A stretch of DNA of 64,000 nt from Polaromonas sp. (GTDB lineage Bacteria; Pseudomonadota; Gammaproteobacteria; Burkholderiales; Burkholderiaceae_C), in assembly GCA_031410335.1 (NCBI GenBank), contig JANNYZ010000030.1, forward strand, positions 543 through 64,542, given 5' to 3'. Made by a program: the position numbers and the translations under genes. The notes beneath the pieces were generated by a model. The model made no database searches and had not been told where the DNA came from. It worked only from the letters and a program-made list of their open reading frames with translations. Positions within the stretch are counted from its first letter, which is position 1, and each line of letters starts with the position of its first letter. Positions 6,500 through 50,520 of the stretch are shown here, in pieces.

Positions 6500-7921
6500 T
6501 CAGTGCATGGCATCTCTTAACCGCGCAAACACCTTCCAGAACGCCGCATCCTGGGTGGTGGCAAAGTTGATCCGCATCAATGTTCCGGGCTGCTGGGTAC
6601 TGTGAAACAAGGCACCGGGCGCCAGCAAATAGCCCTCGTCCAGCATGCGCTGGGCCAGCGCCTCGGTGTCGGTTCCCGTATCAACCCAGCCGAAAAGACC
6701 TGCGGGTTCTGCGGCAAAGGTGCAGCCGTGCGCCAGCGCCAGCCGGGCCGACCGGGCCCTGGCAACGTCCAGCCGGTTGCGAATTCGCTCTGCGTGGCGG
6801 CGCAACTGGCCTTGGTCAATACACCAGGCCAGTGCTTTTTCAAGCAACGCGGGCGTGGTCAGCGAGGCTAGCAGTTTGGTGTCGAGCAGGCGCTCAAACA
6901 GATGGGTGGGCGCGGCGATGTAGCCTACCCGCCAGCCAGGCGCCAGTATTTTGGCGAAACCGCTGACGTAAATCGTGCGCTGCAGACCGTCCAGCGCGCA
7001 CAGACGGGTGGCGTGCTCGGCCGCCAGGTGGCTGTAGGTGTCGTCTTCCAGAATATGAAAGTCATGCAGGGCGGCCAGCTGAAGCACACGGTGGGCGCTG
7101 CCGGGGGTGAGGCAATAGCCGGTGGGGTTGTGCAGCACGCTGACGCTGACAAACAGCTTGGGCGCATGCAGTTTGCAGTAGCTCGCCATCACGTCGAGGT
7201 CAGGCCCGGCAGCAGTGCGCGGCACCGGCAAAATGCGCATGCCCAGTGCATTGAGCCGCGCAAATTCAATCGCCCAGCCCGGCTCTTCCACCATCACGAA
7301 GTCGCCAGCGCGCAGCAGGGTGCGGCTGACAATGTCCAGCGCATGGGTGGCGCCGACGGTGGTGATGATCTGCTCGGGCGCGGCGTGAATGTTCAGGGCA
7401 TCCAGCTTTTTTGACAAGGCGCGGCGCAGGCCGCTGTCGCCCGCAGGCTCGCCATAGTGCAGCGACAGGTCATGAAGTGCCTTGGCGCCGGTGTAACGCC
7501 GCACGGCAGAGGCTAAAAACGTGGTCTGCAGCCAGTCGGACGGAAACACGCCCATGCCGGGCTGCGGCTTGGTACTGACACCATGAAACATGCCGCGAAT
7601 AAGCGCCGTGGCGTTGATGGGGTTGTGCTGGGGCGGGGAGTTGTCTGCTATTGAATCAGGAGCTGGTCGCGCATGATTTTGTTGGTCTGCAGCTATATTT
7701 CGCACATAAAAACCACGGTTTTTGCGGGCTTCAACAAGGCCTTGAGCCAGCAACTGGTCATAGGCGGCCACCACGGTGGATGCGCTCACGCCCTGCTGCT
7801 CGGCGCATTGGCGTACTGATGGCAGGCGCGCGCCGCTGGCCAGCAGCCTGCTTTTGATGCGTTCGGCAAAGCGGTTGGCCAGTTGCTCGGTCAGCGACTG
7901 GGAGGCGGTTCTCATTAGCAT
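6500..7921 (-). CDS. MocR/GabR-type GntR regulator (wHTH plus PLP aminotransferase-like domain)
   Basis: RLPSVRQCA...VSASTVVAAYDQL wHTH; LHNPTG, EDDTY, SGFAKILAPGWRVGY. Confidence 0.95.
   Translation of the reverse strand: MLMRTASQSLTEQLANRFAERIKSRLLASGARLPSVRQCAEQQGVSASTVVAAYDQLLAQGLVEARKNRGFYVRNIAADQQNHARPAPDSIADNSPPQHNPINATALIRGMFHGVSTKPQPGMGVFPSDWLQTTFLASAVRRYTGAKALHDLSLHYGEPAGDSGLRRALSKKLDALNIHAAPEQIITTVGATHALDIVSRTLLRAGDFVMVEEPGWAIEFARLNALGMRILPVPRTAAGPDLDVMASYCKLHAPKLFVSVSVLHNPTGYCLTPGSAHRVLQLAALHDFHILEDDTYSHLAAEHATRLCALDGLQRTIYVSGFAKILAPGWRVGYIAAPTHLFERLLDTKLLASLTTPALLEKALAWCIDQGQLRRHAERIRNRLDVARARSARLALAHGCTFAAEPAGLFGWVDTGTDTEALAQRMLDEGYLLAPGALFHSTQQPGTLMRINFATTQDAAFWKVFARLRDAMH
7647..7698 (+). 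repeat. Dispersed repeat, copy 2, inside the MocR interdomain linker (antisense to the gene)
   Basis: GCTAT-TGAATCA-GGAGC-TGGTCGCGCATGATTTTGTTGGTCTGCAGC matches the repeat consensus. Confidence 0.65.
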
Positions 7922-16154: not shown

Positions 16155-18314
16155 ATGAATTTTCGCCTTTTAAAAAACGCTCTGCTTTTTATAGCTGCTT
16201 GCGCACATATTCATTGGGCTACAGCCCAAATTAATCCCTTAAATGCGCCTCCAAAGGCTGCTAGCAGTGTTGTTGCAACGGACCAGGTGCGTGCCGAGCT
16301 GATGGCCTTCGCCCCCGACGGCGTGGGGCCAGGAAAACAGATTTGGCTGGGCTTGCAACTGGCACACCAGCCAGATTGGCACACTTACTGGAAGAATTCG
16401 GGCGATTCTGGCTTGCCCACAGTGCTTGAATTCAAACTGCCTGCGGGCATTGACCCCGGCGAGATTGCATGGCCGACGCCTAAAAAAATTCCCATTGGGA
16501 CGCTGGCCAACTATGGCTACGAGGGCACGGTGCTGCTGCCTGTGCCGCTGACGGTTGCGCAAAACTTCAACGCGGGGCAGCTCGACATCAAGCTCAAAGC
16601 CGCCTGGCTGGTGTGCAAAAAAGAATGTATTCCGCAAGAAGGCGACTTTGCCCTGAGTATTCCCGCCAAAAGCTCAACGGCCATCAACGCTGCCGTTTTT
16701 CAGGCGGCGTTTGATGCCAGCCCCAAAGCTCTGAAGACAAGTGCCAGCCAGATTGAAGTCGCTGGGAACACGATCAAAGTGTCATTGAGCGATTTGCCTG
16801 GCACCATGACCGGAAAGACCTTGGCGTTTTTCCCGGAAACAGGCAATGTGATCGAGCCCGCCGCGAAGTGGACGCAAAGCTGGCAGGGCAATGTGTGGAC
16901 TGCTCAAGTTCCGCTATCAGGCCAGCGCACTGAAAGCCCCACCGTCATGCCGGTCGTCGTGGCACTGGACAAAATCGCATACCGGATTGAAGCGCCTGTC
17001 AAAGGGGAATGGCCCAAAGTCGCGGCAGCCGCCCAAGTGCCGCCAGCGCTGGAGGCCGCTTTAAAAGCCAACGCCACCAGCGGTGCAGCGCCGATTCAGG
17101 CAGCCGCTACATCGCTGACTTTCTGGGCCGCTTTACTGGGCGCCTTCATCGGAGGCATGATTTTGAACCTGATGCCCTGCGTGTTTCCCGTGCTGGCCAT
17201 CAAGGTGGTGAGCTTTGTGAACGTCAAAGACCAACGCACCCGGGTTGCCACCGGGGTGGCCTACACCGCCGGTGTCACGCTGTCATTTTTAGCCTTGGGC
17301 GCACTACTGCTGGGCCTGCGCGCGGCGGGCGAGCAACTCGGCTGGGGCTTTCAATTGCAAAGCCCTGGGGTCGTGGCTGGGCTGGCCGTGCTGTTCACTC
17401 TGCTGGGTTTGAACCTGGCGGGCTTGTTTGAGTTTGGCAACTTTTTGCCCAGTCGCGTAGCCAGTTTGCAGGCCAGGAACCCGACAGTTGATTCGTTTTT
17501 ATCAGGCGTGCTGGCCACGGCTATTGCATCGCCCTGCACCGCGCCGTTTATGGGTGCATCGCTGGGCTATGCGGTCGGTTTGCCTGCGGTGCAGGCGCTC
17601 GCCGTGTTTGCGGCGATCGGCCTGGGCATGGCGCTGCCGTACCTTGCTGCCAGCGCCGTGCCGGCCATTGCACGGACCCTGCCGCGCCCTGGCGCGTGGA
17701 TGGTGACGTTCAAGCAGCTGATGGCTTTCCCGATGTTTGCCACGGTCGTCTGGCTGGTCTGGGTGCTCGGCCAGCAAAGCGGTATTGATGGTGCGGGCGC
17801 GCTGCTGGGCTTGCTGGTGCTGATGGCTTTGGCCATTTGGGCTTTGACCTTGAAGGGCCGTACGCGAACTGTAATTGCTACATTTTCAATATCAGCTCTC
17901 GCCGGTGGAATATGGTCTGTAGGGCCAAACATTACCAAATTACAGGACATTGGCACGCCTTCTTTTCAGTTAGCGAACGGCTGGCAAGCCTGGGAGCCGG
18001 GCCGTGTAGACCAGCTCACGTCAGCAGGTCAAAGCGTGTTCGTTGACTTCACGGCTGCTTGGTGCGTGACCTGCCAGTACAACAAGAAGACCACCCTGAG
18101 CAATGCGTCTGTACTGGCCGATATTGCCGCCAAAAAAGTGGTTTTGTTGCGCGCCGACTGGACACGCCGTGACCCTGCCGTGACCGCCGCCCTGACGCAA
18201 CTGGGTCGCAGTGGCGTGCCGGTGTATGTGATTTACAAGCCGGGCCGTGCGCCTGTCGTTTTGAGTGAGATTTTGTCTGTGGATGATGTCAGGGCTGAAC
18301 TGGCCAAACTTTAA
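16155..18314 (+). CDS. DsbD/ScsB-type membrane electron transporter
   Basis: Start at ATG 16155; WHTYWKNSGDSG and CKKEC N-domain; MPCVFP and SPCTAPFM membrane cysteines; C-terminal thioredoxin WCVTC. Confidence 0.9.
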   Translation: MNFRLLKNALLFIAACAHIHWATAQINPLNAPPKAASSVVATDQVRAELMAFAPDGVGPGKQIWLGLQLAHQPDWHTYWKNSGDSGLPTVLEFKLPAGIDPGEIAWPTPKKIPIGTLANYGYEGTVLLPVPLTVAQNFNAGQLDIKLKAAWLVCKKECIPQEGDFALSIPAKSSTAINAAVFQAAFDASPKALKTSASQIEVAGNTIKVSLSDLPGTMTGKTLAFFPETGNVIEPAAKWTQSWQGNVWTAQVPLSGQRTESPTVMPVVVALDKIAYRIEAPVKGEWPKVAAAAQVPPALEAALKANATSGAAPIQAAATSLTFWAALLGAFIGGMILNLMPCVFPVLAIKVVSFVNVKDQRTRVATGVAYTAGVTLSFLALGALLLGLRAAGEQLGWGFQLQSPGVVAGLAVLFTLLGLNLAGLFEFGNFLPSRVASLQARNPTVDSFLSGVLATAIASPCTAPFMGASLGYAVGLPAVQALAVFAAIGLGMALPYLAASAVPAIARTLPRPGAWMVTFKQLMAFPMFATVVWLVWVLGQQSGIDGAGALLGLLVLMALAIWALTLKGRTRTVIATFSISALAGGIWSVGPNITKLQDIGTPSFQLANGWQAWEPGRVDQLTSAGQSVFVDFTAAWCVTCQYNKKTTLSNASVLADIAAKKVVLLRADWTRRDPAVTAALTQLGRSGVPVYVIYKPGRAPVVLSEILSVDDVRAELAKL
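16179..16232 (+). repeat. Dispersed repeat, copy 4, encoding the DsbD signal peptide core
   Basis: GCTCT-GCTTTTT-ATAGC-TGCTTGCGCACATATTCATTGGGCTACAGCCCAAA = ALLFIAACAHIHWATAQ. Confidence 0.75.
17877..17931 (+). repeat. Dispersed repeat, copy 5 (degenerate), encoding a DsbD membrane segment
   Basis: By hand count, 35 of 55 positions match the 27281 copy without gaps; same reading frame (ATFSISALAGGIWSVGPN). Confidence 0.45.
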
Positions 18315-19428: not shown

Positions 19429-20190
19429 ATGCCAAGCCTGCTGAACCATCACCCGCGTATCAAGCAAGGCCGGACGGGGATGGTTTGCCTGCTGACACTG
19501 TTACTCGCCGGCTGCGGCGTCGCTCCCCCCGCACCTACCTCGCGCGGCGAAGCGCCTGCCGCGCCCATGACGTCGAGTGAGTTGGCGCAGTCCGATGTCA
19601 ACCGCATGGCCACACTGGGCATGCGTGACAACCTGGCCAGCTTGAACTTGCTGGCCGACAAGCTATACCGCCGCAATCCTGCCGAATGGCGCAAGGTTCA
19701 ACCGACGCGCGAGGCTGCGTTGGCCAAGCTCAAAACGGCCATTGACACCAACATGCCGTGGCCCGAGTTGCAAGGCAAACGTGACATCGCGGCACTGTCG
19801 CTGGCCCTTGGCCCGGACTTCAAGGGCGACAGGGTGGCTGCCTTTATCGCGGCCAGTGCAGACATGCTGGTGACAGCTCACGGAAACAAAACCACCTTTT
19901 ACCTGACCGACCCGCTCGACGCGCAATACATTTATAACGCTGCCCGCAACATTGAAATTGCGGTGTGGCTGTTGGCCAGCCGCAAAAATGCACAGGGCCT
20001 GCCCCTGTTACTGTCTGACGAGATCAATGACCGCGAGCGCAATCTGAGCTTTGAGCGCGAGTTTGGCAAAATCATCGGTAGGCTGGATTTGCTGTCTGCA
20101 GTGCTGACAGAAAAGTACCGCCGCGCGGTCATTACCTATGTGCAAAACCTGCTGGGCGGCACCTTCTTACAATTCTTGCCTGTACGCTAA
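19429..20190 (+). CDS. Hypothetical lipoprotein
   Basis: Lipobox LLLAGC followed by a helical domain; coherent codon usage. The start may be 19480. Confidence 0.7.
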
Positions 20191-20242
20191 GGCGCACGCT
20201 CAACATTACGCTGAAAATCCACCCCAAGAGACAAGTCACAAC

Positions 20243-21340
20243 ATGTACGCACCGCTCCAAAACGACACCTTCATCCGCGCGTGCATGCGCCAGGCCACCG
20301 CCCATACGCCCGTCTGGCTAATGCGGCAAGCGGGTCGCTATTTGCCTGAATACCGGGACACCCGCGCCAAGGCCGGCAGCTTCATGGGCCTGGCCACCAA
20401 TACCGACTACGCCACCGAGGTCACGTTGCAGCCACTGGAGCGCTACAAGCTGGACGCGGCCATTTTGTTCAGCGATATCCTGACCATCCCCGACGCGATG
20501 GGCCTCGGCCTGAGTTTTGCCTTGGGCGAAGGCCCCAAGTTTGCCCACAACGTGCGCGACGAAGCCGCTGTTGCCAAGCTGGCTGTGCCCGACATGGCCA
20601 AGCTGCGCTATGTGTTTGATGCGGTCACGTCCATCCGCAAAGCTCTCAATGGCCGTGTGCCGCTGATCGGCTTTTCAGGCAGCCCATGGACGCTGGCCTG
20701 TTATATGGTCGAAGGCGCAGGCTCTGACGACTACCGGCTGGTCAAAACCATGATGTACCAGCGGCCTGACCTGATGCACAAAATGCTGGCCATCAATGCG
20801 GACTCCGTGGCTGCTTACCTCAATGCTCAAATTGAAGCCGGCGCGCAAGCGGTGATGATTTTTGACAGCTGGGGCGGTGTGTTGGCCGATGCGGCGTTCC
20901 ATGAGTTCAGCTTGGCTTACACCAAGCGCGTGCTGTCCCAGATCAAGCGCAGCCATGACGGCGTAGTCATTCCGCGCCTGGTGTTTACAAAAGGCGGCGG
21001 ATTATGGCTGGAGGCCATGGGTCAGCTCGACTGCGAGGTGCTGGGTCTGGACTGGACAGTGAATTTGGGCAAGGCGCGCGCTCAAGTGGGCCACAAGATG
21101 GCCTTGCAGGGCAACCTCGACCCCAATGTGTTGTTTGCCAACCCGACTCAGGTCGAAGCCGAGGCGATCAAGGTGCTGGACAGCTTTGGCAAACCCCACA
21201 CGGATGCCCAAACCACAGGCCCCACCCATATTTTCAATCTTGGCCATGGCATCAGCCAGTTCACGCCGCCTGAAAACGTCGCTGTGCTGGTTGACGCGGT
21301 ACATGCGCATTCGCGCAAAATGCGTGCTGCTGCGGCCTAG
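20243..21340 (+). CDS. hemE: Uroporphyrinogen decarboxylase
   Basis: Start at ATG 20243; [44 protein letters not shown]. Confidence 0.97.
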
Positions 21341-21726
21341 CTTGCTAGCTATTTGTGACCAAGCACATCCTGCATGCATTTTTCAGGCGCCCCTAGCACA
21401 CATATGGGCAAGGGTGTTGTGACTTATGCACAAAATTTGTGCTGCAGTGCAGTAGGAAAGCGCCTACAGTGCTTCTATCGCTATCAAAGCCATAGCGCTT
21501 CTAAGTTGTTGATTTATATAGACTTCTTAAAATGCTTTTTTTACGGGCAATCTGGCGAAAGCCTTGATTTACAAGGCCTTCAGCGGTATGGGGGTAATCT
21601 ATCAACAAAGTTATCCACAGAAAAAGTGGGCTTCTTCAAAGCACTTGTAAATCAAGCACTTAGCGCGCTCTTTGCATGTGTTTCCAAAGAAGTGCCAACA
21701 ATTTCACACCAATTTGAACTCTGCGT
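21341..21726. other. Candidate chromosomal replication origin (oriC)
   Basis: Perfect DnaA box TTATCCACA (21611-21619), one-mismatch box TTATGCACA (21424-21432), two perfect IHF consensus sites (21502-21514 on minus, 21650-21662 on plus), one near-perfect site (21557-21569) and an AT-rich stretch at about 21500-21545. Confidence 0.6.
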
Positions 21727-23826
21727 ATGACCCATTGGCTAAGCGTTGTGGTGGCGACGCCTGCCCACAGTGCGGTTGCGGGGCCTCTGACCTACAGAAG
21801 TGAGTTGCCACTTGCCCCCGGCACTTTGGTGCGCGTACCCCTGGGCCGGCGTGAAGTACTGGGCGTGGTCTGGGAAAGCGCTGCCGACAGTGGCGGCCTG
21901 CTGGAAATGCAGACCAAAAACGTCGCGGGTGTGCTCGACGGCCTGGCGCCACTAAACGCGAACTGGCGGGCACTGGTCAGCTTTACAGCCAGTTACTACC
22001 AGCGCTCTTTGGGTGAAGTGGCGCTGGCCGCGCTGCCGCCGCAGTTGCGGGAACTGACCGGCCTACAACTCGCCAGGCGTTTGAAACGCCCTGTTCTAGA
22101 CACCAGCCACGCGCCGGGCGCGACTGACCTCATCGCGCTAAGCGCACAACAACAAACGGCCCTGACCGGATTCGAGGCTGAAAACAGCGAAAAAAAGCGA
22201 CCCGCACTGCTGTTTGGCGCCACAGGCAGCGGCAAAACCGAGGTGTATCTGCGTCTGGCGGCCCAAGTACTGGCGCAAGATTCGTCAGCGCAGGTCTTGG
22301 TGATGGTGCCCGAGATCAACCTCACACCGCAGCTGGAAGCGCGCTTTGCAGAGCGCTTTGCCCACCTAGGTAGCGAACGCGTGGTGGCGCTACACAGCGG
22401 CCTCACGCCCGCCCAGCGCCTGAAAAGTTGGTTGGCCGCCCATTCAGGCAACGCCCGTTTGATCTTGGGTACCCGCATGGCTGTGCTGGCGTCCATGCCC
22501 AGCCTCAAACTGATCGTGGTCGATGAAGAGCACGACCCCAGCTACAAGCAGCAGGAAGGCGCACGCTATTCAGCACGTGACCTGGCGGTGTACCGCGCCA
22601 GCATTCACGATGATTGTCGGGTGCTGCTGGGTTCAGCCACGCCGTCTCTGGAGAGTTGGCAGGCGACGATCAGCGGCAAGTACCAGCTCTTGAAAATGGA
22701 TGAGCGGATTGGCTCAGGCATTGACTCCGGCGGTTTGCCAACAGTCCGGGGTGTCGACATGAACCACCAGCCCAAGCACTGCGTGATTGCCCCGCCGCTG
22801 GTCAAAGCCATTGAAGAACGCATCGATAGAGGCGAGCAGTCGCTGATTTTTCTCAACCGCCGCGGCTATGCCCCCGTGCTGGCTTGCCAAGACTGCGGCT
22901 GGAAGAGTGAATGCCCGCATTGCAGCGCCTACCGCGTGTTTCACAAAATCGACCGCACCCTGCGCTGCCACCACTGCGGCTTTACCGAGCGCGTGCCGCG
23001 CGCCTGCCCTGCCTGCGGCAATATCGACATTGCACCTGTGGGCCGTGGAACGGAACGACTGGAAGAACACCTGGCCGAGTTGCTGGCTAACGTCAAGCGA
23101 CCCGACGGCAGCCCCGTGTGCATCGCGCGGATTGATGCCGACAGCACCCGATTAAAAGGCGCCCTGCAATCACAGCTGGCCAGCGTGCATGCTGGCGAGG
23201 TCGATGTGCTGGTCGGTACCCAGATGATCGCCAAGGGCCACGACTTCAGGCACATCACGCTGGTGGCCGCCATCAACCCCGACGGGGCGCTTTTTTCAAG
23301 CGACTTTCGGGCGCCTGAGCGTTTGTTCAGCCTCTTGATGCAAGCCGGTGGTCGGGCCGGCCGCGATGCCGCCCGCAGCGGCGCAAGTGAAATGTGGGTA
23401 CAAACCTTTCACCCCACACATCCGCTGTTTGCAGCGCTTAAAACGCACGACTACCGAAAATTTGCCGCCCAGCAACTGGAAGAACGCCAAGCCGCAGGCT
23501 TGTCACCGTTCGGCTTTTCAGCATTGATCCGCGCCGAAGCCAAAGCACAGGACGTGGCGCAGGGCTTTTTAAACGCAGCGATAGCCGCAGCGTTGGCGGC
23601 TGAGCTGGAAGGCCACAATCACATCACCGCCTACCCGGCAGTCCCCATGACCATCCAGCGAGTCGCCAACATCGAGCGCGCACAAATGCTGGTGGAAAGC
23701 GCATCACGCACTGCCTTGCAACGCTTTTTAGCCGCGTGGCAGCCCGTGCTGTTCGAGACGCGAAAGCAGGGCGACTTCAAGAGCCTGATTCGCTGGGCGA
23801 TTGATGTGGATCCACTGGCGATTTGA
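21727..23826 (+). CDS. priA: Primosomal protein N'
   Basis: GATGSGKTEVY, VPEINLTPQL, DEEHD, two CxxC pairs of the Zn region, GTQMIAKGHDF. Confidence 0.97.
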   Translation: MTHWLSVVVATPAHSAVAGPLTYRSELPLAPGTLVRVPLGRREVLGVVWESAADSGGLLEMQTKNVAGVLDGLAPLNANWRALVSFTASYYQRSLGEVALAALPPQLRELTGLQLARRLKRPVLDTSHAPGATDLIALSAQQQTALTGFEAENSEKKRPALLFGATGSGKTEVYLRLAAQVLAQDSSAQVLVMVPEINLTPQLEARFAERFAHLGSERVVALHSGLTPAQRLKSWLAAHSGNARLILGTRMAVLASMPSLKLIVVDEEHDPSYKQQEGARYSARDLAVYRASIHDDCRVLLGSATPSLESWQATISGKYQLLKMDERIGSGIDSGGLPTVRGVDMNHQPKHCVIAPPLVKAIEERIDRGEQSLIFLNRRGYAPVLACQDCGWKSECPHCSAYRVFHKIDRTLRCHHCGFTERVPRACPACGNIDIAPVGRGTERLEEHLAELLANVKRPDGSPVCIARIDADSTRLKGALQSQLASVHAGEVDVLVGTQMIAKGHDFRHITLVAAINPDGALFSSDFRAPERLFSLLMQAGGRAGRDAARSGASEMWVQTFHPTHPLFAALKTHDYRKFAAQQLEERQAAGLSPFGFSALIRAEAKAQDVAQGFLNAAIAAALAAELEGHNHITAYPAVPMTIQRVANIERAQMLVESASRTALQRFLAAWQPVLFETRKQGDFKSLIRWAIDVDPLAI

Positions 23827-49059: not shown

Positions 49060-50520
49060 TTAGCTGGTTGTTTCAGACAGGGCATCGCCCACGCCAAAAC
49101 GCCTGAGCTTGACGTAAAGACTTTGTCGCGAGAGGCCCAGCATTTCTGCCGCTGCAGCGCGGTTGTCGCCTGTCAGCTCAAGTGCTGCCTCGATGCACAG
49201 CTCTTCAATCAGATCGGTGGTTTCCCGAACGATATCGCGTAAAGGAACACGGCCGACTAGCTCGGTCATCTGACCGGGTGAACGTGGCATGTCCTTGCCC
49301 GCAACCTGTGTCTCGCCCATCAGGCGTCTGCCGACGTCGCGAATGGTGAAAGCCAGACACGCCTGGTCTCCAGTGCCAACGGATACTGCTGAAATCTCAA
49401 CATCAGCTTTGGCACCATACTCACCCTGCATCGTAGTGGCATACAAACGCACCGCACCGCGCTGCTTTAAATTTGACACCAGCACATTCATGTCCACTCC
49501 GCTACGACCCAGCCATTTTTGAAGCGACTCACCGCGAACCAGCGCGTCGCTGGCAAGCTGGGTCAGCTCCAGAAAAGCGCGATTTACCGACTGAACGCGA
49601 CCCTCAGCATCGGTCATTGCAAATGCGTCGGGGGCGTTTTCCAGCGCTTTGAGCAGTAACTGGGTCGCGCTGTTTTCGCTGGATTCAACCTGGGGACCGG
49701 TAGAGTTGATACGCAACAGCAGGTGGGTGGAATTCTCTTGCCTGAACAGCGATCCCGACAATGAAAACGCCTCGGCCAAGCCATCAAAACAAACGGTGAT
49801 GGGATCAGCACGACCATTACTGCGCAACGCGGCAAACAGCTGCTGTACGCCCGGAACACTCAAGGAGTCCAGACTGTCAGCAAATGTCCAGCCTGCGGTA
49901 CGTGCCCTGTCACCGAGAAGCTTGTAGGCAGCGGGATTGGCTTCTTCGAGTTTTTCTGAAGTGGCATCCAGAATCAGCACGGCCTCCGACGCCACCTGAA
50001 ATAACAGTCGGTAGCGGGTCTCAACATGGCGTAAGCGCCAGTAATCTCTCTCCATTGACAACTGTGCACTGACAAGGCGCTGCTGCAAAGCCACTTGCGA
50101 ACGCAGGTCCCGCCCGAATGCGACCGAATGCCGGCGTCCAGCCTCGCGCCTGATCGGCACAATCGTGTACGAAAGCGCCAGGTCGGCCTTGTTGACCGAG
50201 GGGTGGTTAATATGCCGCCACTTGGAACTGCCCCCTTGTGCCGCTTCCTTGAGCATTTCCTGAACTTTGGGTTGACTTTCAACCGTGACGGTTTGAAGCC
50301 AAGGCTTGCCCAGCCAGTCCGCGTCTGCGTGTTCTTTGAGTTCATCGCTGGCAAAAGCCATGTCCTGAATGACACCGGCTTCATCCAGAATAAGTGCGAC
50401 ATCAGCTGCAGCCGAAATCAGCGAGGCCGCAGTTTCCGCGTCCAGTCCTGCCAAAAACTGTTCGGGCTGATCAAAATGCCCAAGAACATTTTCTTTAGTC
50501 AACTGTAGGGTGGCATTCAT
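49060..50520 (-). CDS. ppsR: Transcriptional repressor PpsR/CrtJ
   Basis: SMERDYWRLRHVETRYRLLF; ETTDLIEELCIEAALELTGDNRAAAAEMLGLSRQSLYVKLRRFG. Confidence 0.95.
   Translation of the reverse strand: MNATLQLTKENVLGHFDQPEQFLAGLDAETAASLISAAADVALILDEAGVIQDMAFASDELKEHADADWLGKPWLQTVTVESQPKVQEMLKEAAQGGSSKWRHINHPSVNKADLALSYTIVPIRREAGRRHSVAFGRDLRSQVALQQRLVSAQLSMERDYWRLRHVETRYRLLFQVASEAVLILDATSEKLEEANPAAYKLLGDRARTAGWTFADSLDSLSVPGVQQLFAALRSNGRADPITVCFDGLAEAFSLSGSLFRQENSTHLLLRINSTGPQVESSENSATQLLLKALENAPDAFAMTDAEGRVQSVNRAFLELTQLASDALVRGESLQKWLGRSGVDMNVLVSNLKQRGAVRLYATTMQGEYGAKADVEISAVSVGTGDQACLAFTIRDVGRRLMGETQVAGKDMPRSPGQMTELVGRVPLRDIVRETTDLIEELCIEAALELTGDNRAAAAEMLGLSRQSLYVKLRRFGVGDALSETTS

Follow-up and report, generated by a model that had tools for sequence, protein, structure and literature searches.

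Between hemE and priA of a Polaromonas genome lies a 386-bp spacer with consensus DnaA boxes and IHF-type sites, and the question is whether it is a replication origin, a locus that controls DnaA, or an operator of priA. The first-pass annotation of the window (the whole 64,000-nucleotide stretch of DNA that was analysed) proposed a candidate oriC, with a DARS- or datA-like DnaA control locus as the alternative. To our knowledge, the DARS and datA loci have been experimentally characterised only in Escherichia coli, and how DnaA is reset between replication rounds outside E. coli is largely unknown. Homologues of DARS2 have been reported only for Gammaproteobacteria close to E. coli (PMC8682772). 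Our literature search returned nothing relevant on DARS outside the Gammaproteobacteria or on an oriC at hemE–priA in Burkholderiales.

Motifs of the hemE–priA spacer

The flanking genes were identified as hemE and priA by their Pfam matches (Table 1), and dnaA is indeed not nearby, being located on a different contig (C174). The motifs that had been listed for the spacer could be read directly from the sequence: the perfect DnaA box TTATCCACA, the second box TTATGCACA, an exact 13-bp inverted repeat (CTTGATTTACAAG, 21563–21575, and its reverse complement CTTGTAAATCAAG, 21644–21656), and perfect matches to the IHF-type pattern WATCAANNNNTTR at 21502–21514 (minus strand) and 21650–21662 (plus strand). 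The AT-rich stretch is also present, as a tract at 21502–21545 which contains an IHF-type site. An inverted-repeat search lengthened the 13-bp arms to 18 nt at 89%.

The 'symmetric architecture' claimed for the spacer stood only in part. The 13-bp repeat is real, but its exact form is lineage-specific in the family alignment. Because the family keeps only TTGATTT/AAATCAA, the symmetry is that of two oppositely oriented IHF-type motifs, not of a conserved palindrome.

There are 15 copies of TTATCCACA genome-wide compared with ∼14 estimated from base composition, so that a single perfect box is at chance level. Two perfect TTATNCACA boxes within 400 bp of each other were found at only two places in the genome, the hemE–priA spacer and the dnaA–dnaN spacer, and WATCAANNNNTTR has four matches in the whole 64-kb window (1.0 expected from shuffles), two of them inside the 386-bp spacer. 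Taken together, the listed motifs far exceed chance. The dnaA–dnaN spacer (contig C174, 8176–8330) contains two perfect TTATNCACA boxes and one near-match; the region upstream of dnaA is at 6666–6716. A tandem pair in an 11-bp register, TTATAAACA-GG-TTATCCACA, was also noted at 50109–50128 of contig C153, which has uniformly negative skew.

Table 1. Features of the hemE–priA spacer and its flanks (window coordinates)
Feature	Position	Strand	Remarks
hemE (uroporphyrinogen decarboxylase)	20138–21340	+	upstream flank; Pfam URO-D, E = 5.9e-130
Distal consensus DnaA box TTATGCACA	21424–21432	+	187 bp upstream of box II
Fis-consensus match GCACAAAATTTGTGC	21428–21442		lead only; 15-nt consensus pattern match; overlaps distal box
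Palindrome CGCTATCAAAGCCATAGCG	21479–21497		in 61/101 aligned sequences; replaced by unrelated sequence in the others
IHF-type site A, TAAGTTGTTGATTTATATAG (reverse strand AATCAACAACTTA)	21502–21521	-	perfect WATCAANNNNTTR; 109 bp upstream of box II
Block TGC-T7-ACGG-GCA (TGC N11 GCA)	21533–21549		TGC and GCA invariant in 101 sequences
Palindrome GAAAGCCTTGATTTACAAGGCCTTC	21557–21581		10-bp arms, 5-nt loop; inverted-repeat search
DnaA box III CTATCAACA	21599–21607	+	7/9; head-to-tail with box II, 3-bp gap AAG
DnaA box II TTATCCACA	21611–21619	+	full consensus; centre of invariant 25-nt block
DnaA box I position AGTGGGCTT	21625–21633	-	4/9 in window; inverted relative to box II, 5-bp spacer GAAAA
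IHF-type site C AATCAAGCACTTA	21650–21662	+	perfect WATCAANNNNTTR; 39 bp downstream of box II
priA (primosomal helicase PriA)	21727–23826	+	downstream flank; Pfam PriA_3primeBD, DEAD, Zn_ribbon_PriA, PriA_C

Position of the element relative to the origin

The origin is expected at the minimum of the cumulative GC skew. The window genome is a draft of 206 contigs, 93% complete, and the origin test was therefore run on complete relatives, with 400 kb around the element fetched in three complete genomes of other genera (G179, G067 and G276). In G179, skew is negative in 19 of the 20 20-kb windows between 2.154 and 2.554 Mb, with the element at 2.354 Mb. For G067 the corresponding figure is 16 of 20 (3.237–3.637 Mb); the cumulative skew drops across the element at 3.438 Mb, and the KOPS motif GGGNAGGG lies mostly on the reverse strand over the same region. 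In G276, where the element is at 1.748 Mb, skew is mostly positive and KOPS mostly forward between 1.31 and 1.93 Mb; the cumulative skew minimum (1,311,796) is 18 kb from dnaA. GC skew and KOPS polarity are thus unchanged in sign over 200 kb or more in each direction from the element in all three genomes, which places it inside a uniformly polarised replichore. Because the element is off the cumulative-skew minimum, the origin reading fails in these relatives.

In the window's own genus, the complete 4.51-Mb genome G203 has its element at 1.8436 Mb. Skew is essentially zero over the 200 kb to its left and to its right, with no V-shaped profile; the cumulative minimum of this genome is at 1.524 Mb, 320 kb away, and its terminus is near 3.5 Mb. 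No DnaA-box cluster was found at this minimum, and polarity does not change across dnaA (1.407 Mb). Around the element, G203 is collinear with the G276 stretch of uniform polarity. On contig C30, no negative-to-positive skew switch was found over the 22 kb left and 44 kb right of the element; skew on the left is not negative but slightly positive, and the three KOPS all point forward. On contig C174, neither GC skew nor KOPS changes polarity across dnaA, so that dnaA is not at a polarity switch there. Across 19 complete or near-complete genomes, the element lies 240–675 kb from dnaA, or about 8–18% of the chromosome. The skew check that had been proposed for the oriC claim thus located no switch at the element, and the origin reading is refuted for the three relatives and unsupported for the window's genus.

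Two further observations were made on these chromosomes. Comparison of G203 (C1, 1.43–1.59 Mb; L071–L079) with G276 (C1, 1.31–1.38 Mb) revealed a ∼66-kb inversion just upstream of dnaA, split in G203 by a ∼65-kb strain-specific insert (1.49–1.556 Mb) which holds the skew minimum at 1,524,094. In G179, G067 and G276 (L125–L184), hemE and priA are transcribed in the direction of the origin and so meet the replication fork head-on, and both of the dnaA/element configurations seen among the 19 genomes are consistent with this head-on orientation being general.

Coding, RNA and promoter content

A 118-aa ORF with an ATG start (21374–21730) runs the length of the spacer and overlaps the start of priA by ATGA, and gene callers may annotate it. 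As a small protein gene it was rejected: it has no Pfam match, its frame is not conserved (at most 22 of 103 relatives keep any one frame open) and the variability across relatives lacks a codon-type 3-nt period. A structured RNA, sRNA or leader was rejected as well. No Rfam match was obtained at E ≤ 10 on either strand, and RNAalifold on the plus strand of 101 sequences gave −0.39 kcal/mol with 3 invariant pairs, no covariation and no consensus fold; the exception is the palindrome at 21557–81, with a few paired changes. A scan of 21200–21900 found no terminator-like site after hemE and no sigma-70-like promoter.

None of the RNA sequencing runs carries the window sequence, which was found only in metagenome DNA runs. 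Contigs from RNA runs of Variovorax relatives span hemE, the spacer and priA in three of four runs; DNA carry-over is possible, and these contigs are weakly consistent with read-through transcription from hemE.

Conservation and distribution

Within the genus, 32 of 36 genomes have a match to the spacer; the identity, 70–85%, is unusually high for non-coding DNA. In the alignment, invariant blocks alternate with stretches that vary in sequence but not in length. With up to two mismatches allowed, a 25-nt core, CTATCAACAAAGTTATCCACAGAAA, was found in 114 of the 301 family genomes, spread over 87 of the family's 201 genera, and nearly all of these genomes have it at a single locus. This core lies between hemE and priA, in the same orientation, in 30/30 fetched loci, and between these genes in most of 120 named loci. 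Conservation of the motifs in hemE–priA spacers, which had been suggested as a check, is thus strong. Because of it, the fallback explanation given with the oriC claim, that the sites are ordinary priA promoter elements, is too weak.

An exact-pattern scan of named genomes found the element in Rhodoferax, Polaromonas, Hydrogenophaga, Acidovorax, Variovorax, Limnohabitans, Comamonas and Simplicispira, and also in Janthinobacterium, Undibacterium, Noviherbaspirillum and several Gammaproteobacteria, most with priA just downstream. Two records stand apart by their labels: the hemE–priA loci of a 'Bordetella parapertussis' MAG (L212) and a 'Synechococcus sp. UW140' MAG (L226) are 80–85% protein-identical to the Comamonadaceae window, and both are probably mis-binned or mislabelled contigs.

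According to the 101-sequence alignment and the motif offsets, the distances between blocks vary by no more than ±1 bp across >80 genera. The family layout starts with ACTTAT[G/T/A]CACAAAA, followed 81 bp on by TAAGTnnTTGATTTATATAG, an IHF-type site on the reverse strand. It continues with TGC-N11-GCA, a palindrome, AAAGCCTTGATTTnCAAGGCTTT, and the invariant CTATCAACAAAGTTATCCACAGAAA, and ends 42–44 bp past this with AAATCAAGnACTTAG, an IHF-type site on the forward strand. The conserved part of the spacer is ∼260 bp (about 21412–21681). In Comamonadaceae the core keeps a constant distance of ∼100–145 bp from the priA start. In Acidovorax/Paracidovorax and some other genera, two to four copies of the module are arranged in tandem between hemE and priA, with a period of about 325–370 bp (L034–L037, L057, L058, L208, L213–L215, L252, L258, L296, L299, L305 and L320).

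Anatomy of the element

In the family alignment of 101 sequences, DnaA box II is invariant. Box III, read in tandem with it, has 7/9 matches in 89/101 relatives. The position on the other side of box II, in inverted orientation, has the family consensus TCTGGATAA and matches a DnaA box at a mean of 5.4/9 in this register, compared with 1.5–3.1 in shifted registers. This box I is the perfect TGTGGATAA in gammaproteobacterial copies; it is weak in the window genome (4/9) and in its genus, and it is lost in the Janthinobacterium copies. The core of the window element reads CTATCAACA(III)-AAG-TTATCCACA(II)-GAAAA-AGTGGGCTT(I), and the spacer as a whole holds two consensus and two weak DnaA boxes, one pair being inverted.

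The distal box has invariant TTAT-CACA, with only the N of TTATNCACA varying (G/T/A), and its distance to the tandem box is a constant 185–186 bp. Of IHF-type site A, TAAGT..TTGATTT is near-invariant, and the IHF-type motif at −109 reads TAAGTTGTTGATT in the window. IHF-type site C overlaps the right arm of the 13-bp repeat and keeps ATCAA..ACTTA family-wide. The one-mismatch IHF-type site is part of the palindrome at 21557–21581, as is the left arm of the 13-bp repeat; this palindrome keeps its −45 position relative to the tandem box, and some of the changes in its arms are paired. The TGC and GCA of the TGC N11 GCA block show no covariation among the 101 sequences. A Fis-type match between the distal box and the IHF site was found in only 30/101 relatives, and the consensus pattern gave no convincing conservation of Fis-type sites across these 101.

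A second module and other gene contexts

A second module of the same design is present in the window genome on contig C69 (about 17,590–17,900, minus strand), between a 465-aa gene and an exbB/tolQ-like gene and upstream of the latter. It has an IHF-type motif, TAAGTCATTGATTTA, at −107 and the core TTGCCCACA-AAG-TTATCCACA-ACTTC-TGTGTATCG, in which box I matches at 6/9, better than in the hemE–priA element. This locus type recurs in five other betaproteobacterial loci (L270, L278, L281, L295 and L301). Global alignment of the hemE–priA and C69 modules was not significant overall (score 98, against 87.5 ± 7.2 for shuffles), and only the motif blocks and their spacing are common to the two.

In several Gammaproteobacteria the module lies away from priA, and the region upstream of priA in E. 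coli has no such DnaA boxes. Over the beta- and gammaproteobacterial loci in their varied contexts, most of the IHF-type motifs that were found fall between −107 and −111, and the distal boxes between −164 and −192. Since it is found in differing gene contexts, on C69 and away from priA in Gammaproteobacteria, the module behaves as an autonomous element.

Function of the element

What could be established directly is the sequence anatomy of the element, its conservation, its fixed spacing and its position within a replichore in relatives. The other suggestion of the first-pass annotation, a DARS- or datA-like DnaA control locus, is supported by the order and orientation of the boxes and the 3-bp and 5-bp gaps, which are those of DARS, with the IHF-type site and the distal box also placed as in DARS2. 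We give about an even chance to the reading that the element is a DARS2-type DnaA/IHF locus, and not an origin, which would remodel DnaA oligomers and most likely regenerate ATP-DnaA.

Three other readings were weighed against this. That the element is oriC, or a second, cryptic or ancestral origin kept beside hemE as in Alphaproteobacteria, would fit its DnaA boxes ∼185 bp apart, IHF-type sites and AT-rich tract within ∼260 bp, which resemble a minimal oriC; the element has the hemE neighbour in common with the oriC of Caulobacter and other Alphaproteobacteria, and DnaA boxes, IHF-type sites and a size of about 250 bp in common with these origins and with E. coli oriC. It would also fit the fact that dnaA is off the polarity switch in G203 and on contig C174 and that the 93%-complete draft has no strong DnaA-box cluster elsewhere; in Cupriavidus metallidurans, too, the skew switch is 90 kb from dnaA (PMC2864759). 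However, unlike the origins of Caulobacter and E. coli, the element is off the skew switch in relatives (skew and KOPS in G179, G067 and G276), the flat skew of G203 and the slightly positive left side of contig C30 speak against it, and its few boxes have the head-to-head layout of DARS, unlike the head-to-tail arrays of origins. Nor was any evidence of an unwinding element seen. We regard an origin as very improbable.

According to the second reading, the element is only a promoter or operator, at which DnaA and IHF regulate priA, or read-through from hemE to priA, with the activity of DnaA unaffected. The constant placing of the core before the priA start in Comamonadaceae fits a transcriptional operator, and the link to priA extends to Oxalobacteraceae and some Gammaproteobacteria; there is no terminator after hemE, and the RNA-run contigs of Variovorax relatives, with the proviso of DNA carry-over, weakly point the same way. 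Against this, an operator does not require ∼260 bp of rigidly spaced blocks or tandem modules of ∼330 bp, and the promoter scan gave no sigma-70-like site. Modules of this design are also present in unrelated contexts (the exbB/tolQ-like gene, and Gammaproteobacteria away from priA), and priA of E. coli is without such boxes. Since E. coli DARS1 is also upstream of a gene (uvrB), the two roles are compatible; a purely regulatory role seems distinctly unlikely. In the third reading, the element would be datA-like or a purely titrating sink, restraining re-initiation by DnaA-ATP hydrolysis or by sequestration of DnaA after initiation. At E. coli datA (94.7 min), a weak and a perfect box in tandem 3 bp apart (TTGTAAACA-GAG-TTATCCACA) are accompanied by an IHF site and a box ∼160 bp off (PMC10950094). 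Like the element, datA is intergenic and about 10% of the chromosome from the origin (for the element, ∼10% from dnaA); it is read through from the upstream gene, as the element may be. The window box I (4/9) scores no better than the same position at datA, and the two to four tandem modules in some genera would fit titration. However, the layout of datA, with boxes 7 and 2 in tandem, one IHF site downstream of box 2, and boxes 3(-4), was not found: the IHF site and distal boxes of datA are on the box 2 side of the tandem pair, whereas in the window element and DARS2 they are on the box III side. In addition, datA has no conserved inverted box at 5 bp; such a box, register-specific at exactly 5 bp, conserved in the family and perfect in Gammaproteobacteria, is a mark of DARS, and from datA the opposite biochemical outcome would be expected. 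We therefore consider a datA-like role unlikely.

On the DARS2-type reading, DnaA bound at the perfect box II would recruit more DnaA molecules, head-to-tail on box III and head-to-head on the inverted box I. Bending of the DNA by IHF ∼109 bp upstream would bring DnaA at the distal box to the core, perhaps together with a Fis-like protein. The resulting oligomer, under strain, would then alter the nucleotide state of DnaA, most likely through ADP release, and would thereby restore ATP-DnaA following its Hda-dependent hydrolysis, as DARS2 does. Transcription reading through from hemE, and the nearby start of priA, may modulate or exploit the binding of DnaA and IHF. The window genome has genes for IHF-alpha, IHF-beta and Hda, each of which scores above its curated cut-off, and carries a dusB-fis-like gene pair.

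Several observations count against this assignment. Box I is weak in the genome and genus and lost in the Janthinobacterium copies, Fis-type sites are not convincingly conserved, and the distal box is oriented opposite to box V of DARS2. Distance from dnaA also resembles that of datA more than that of DARS2. In E. coli, Gln208 of DnaA is needed for DARS-dependent ADP release and makes the head-to-head contact (PMC6868365). The DnaA of the window genome has Ser at this position, with V211, Q215, F239, K243, L290 and R285 conserved.

More tentatively, and with a little less than even confidence, the spacer may belong to an old family of DARS2-type DnaA/IHF elements that is widespread in Beta- and Gammaproteobacteria and keeps a fixed layout of distal box, IHF site at about −108 and three-box core. 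Its members would often be linked to priA and sometimes be repeated in tandem, and a genome of this lineage would have two or more paralogous loci. If such elements regenerate ATP-DnaA, DARS-type recycling would be ancestral to a large part of the Proteobacteria and not a peculiarity of E. coli relatives, and it would use a different DnaA interface, with Ser instead of Gln208. A rigid DARS2-type element across a betaproteobacterial family is a candidate for DnaA control in environmentally dominant bacteria, among them Rhodoferax, Polaromonas, Acidovorax, Variovorax and Hydrogenophaga. For annotation, clusters of DnaA boxes and IHF sites beside hemE should not be called oriC in Burkholderiales, and it should be borne in mind that dnaA is not always at the skew switch in this lineage.

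Comparison with DARS1 and DARS2

The core of a DARS locus consists of three DnaA boxes, with boxes I and II head-to-head at a 5-bp space; in DARS1, box II is a full consensus and recruits DnaA to boxes I and III (PMC6868365). In E. coli MG1655, DARS1 reads TTATCCACT-ATTCC-TGTGGATAA-CCA-TGTGTATTA and the DARS2 core reads TTATTCACC-TTTTC-TGTGGATAG-AGT-TGTGAAGAA. The three-box core of the window is identical to both in orientation and in its 3-bp and 5-bp gaps, with box I matching at only 4/9. By gene context, hemE–priA, it is not orthologous to either locus of E. coli, as the uvrB or mutH neighbourhood is absent.

DARS1, a 101-bp element in the bioD–uvrB spacer, has the same core geometry and a perfect box II, and it is likewise located just upstream of a DNA-repair or replication gene (uvrB in E. 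coli, priA in the window). It has no distal box and works without IHF or Fis (PMC11724364), whereas the window element carries conserved IHF-type sites. DARS2 is 256 bp long and its core needs the IHF site IBS1-2 and Fis sites (PMC11724364). It differs from the window element in being located in the rppH–mutH spacer, in having a weak box II where the window has a perfect consensus, and in having Fis sites where no convincing ones were found in the window element. Box I, in turn, is weak in the window lineage, the distal box is in the opposite orientation to box V, and the window element has two extra IHF-type motifs and the conserved TGC-N11-GCA block; in some genera that carry the hemE–priA element there are 2–4 tandem modules. 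The likeness to DARS2 is nevertheless extensive. In both, box II lies between box III (head-to-tail, 3 bp) and box I (head-to-head, 5 bp), and even the spacer GAAAA is identical. On the box III side, measured from box II, an IHF-type site in the same orientation is located at −109 in the window and −99 in E. coli (TAATGCATTGACT), followed by a full-consensus distal box at −187 in the window and −197 in E. coli (box V), and the overall size is about 260 bp.
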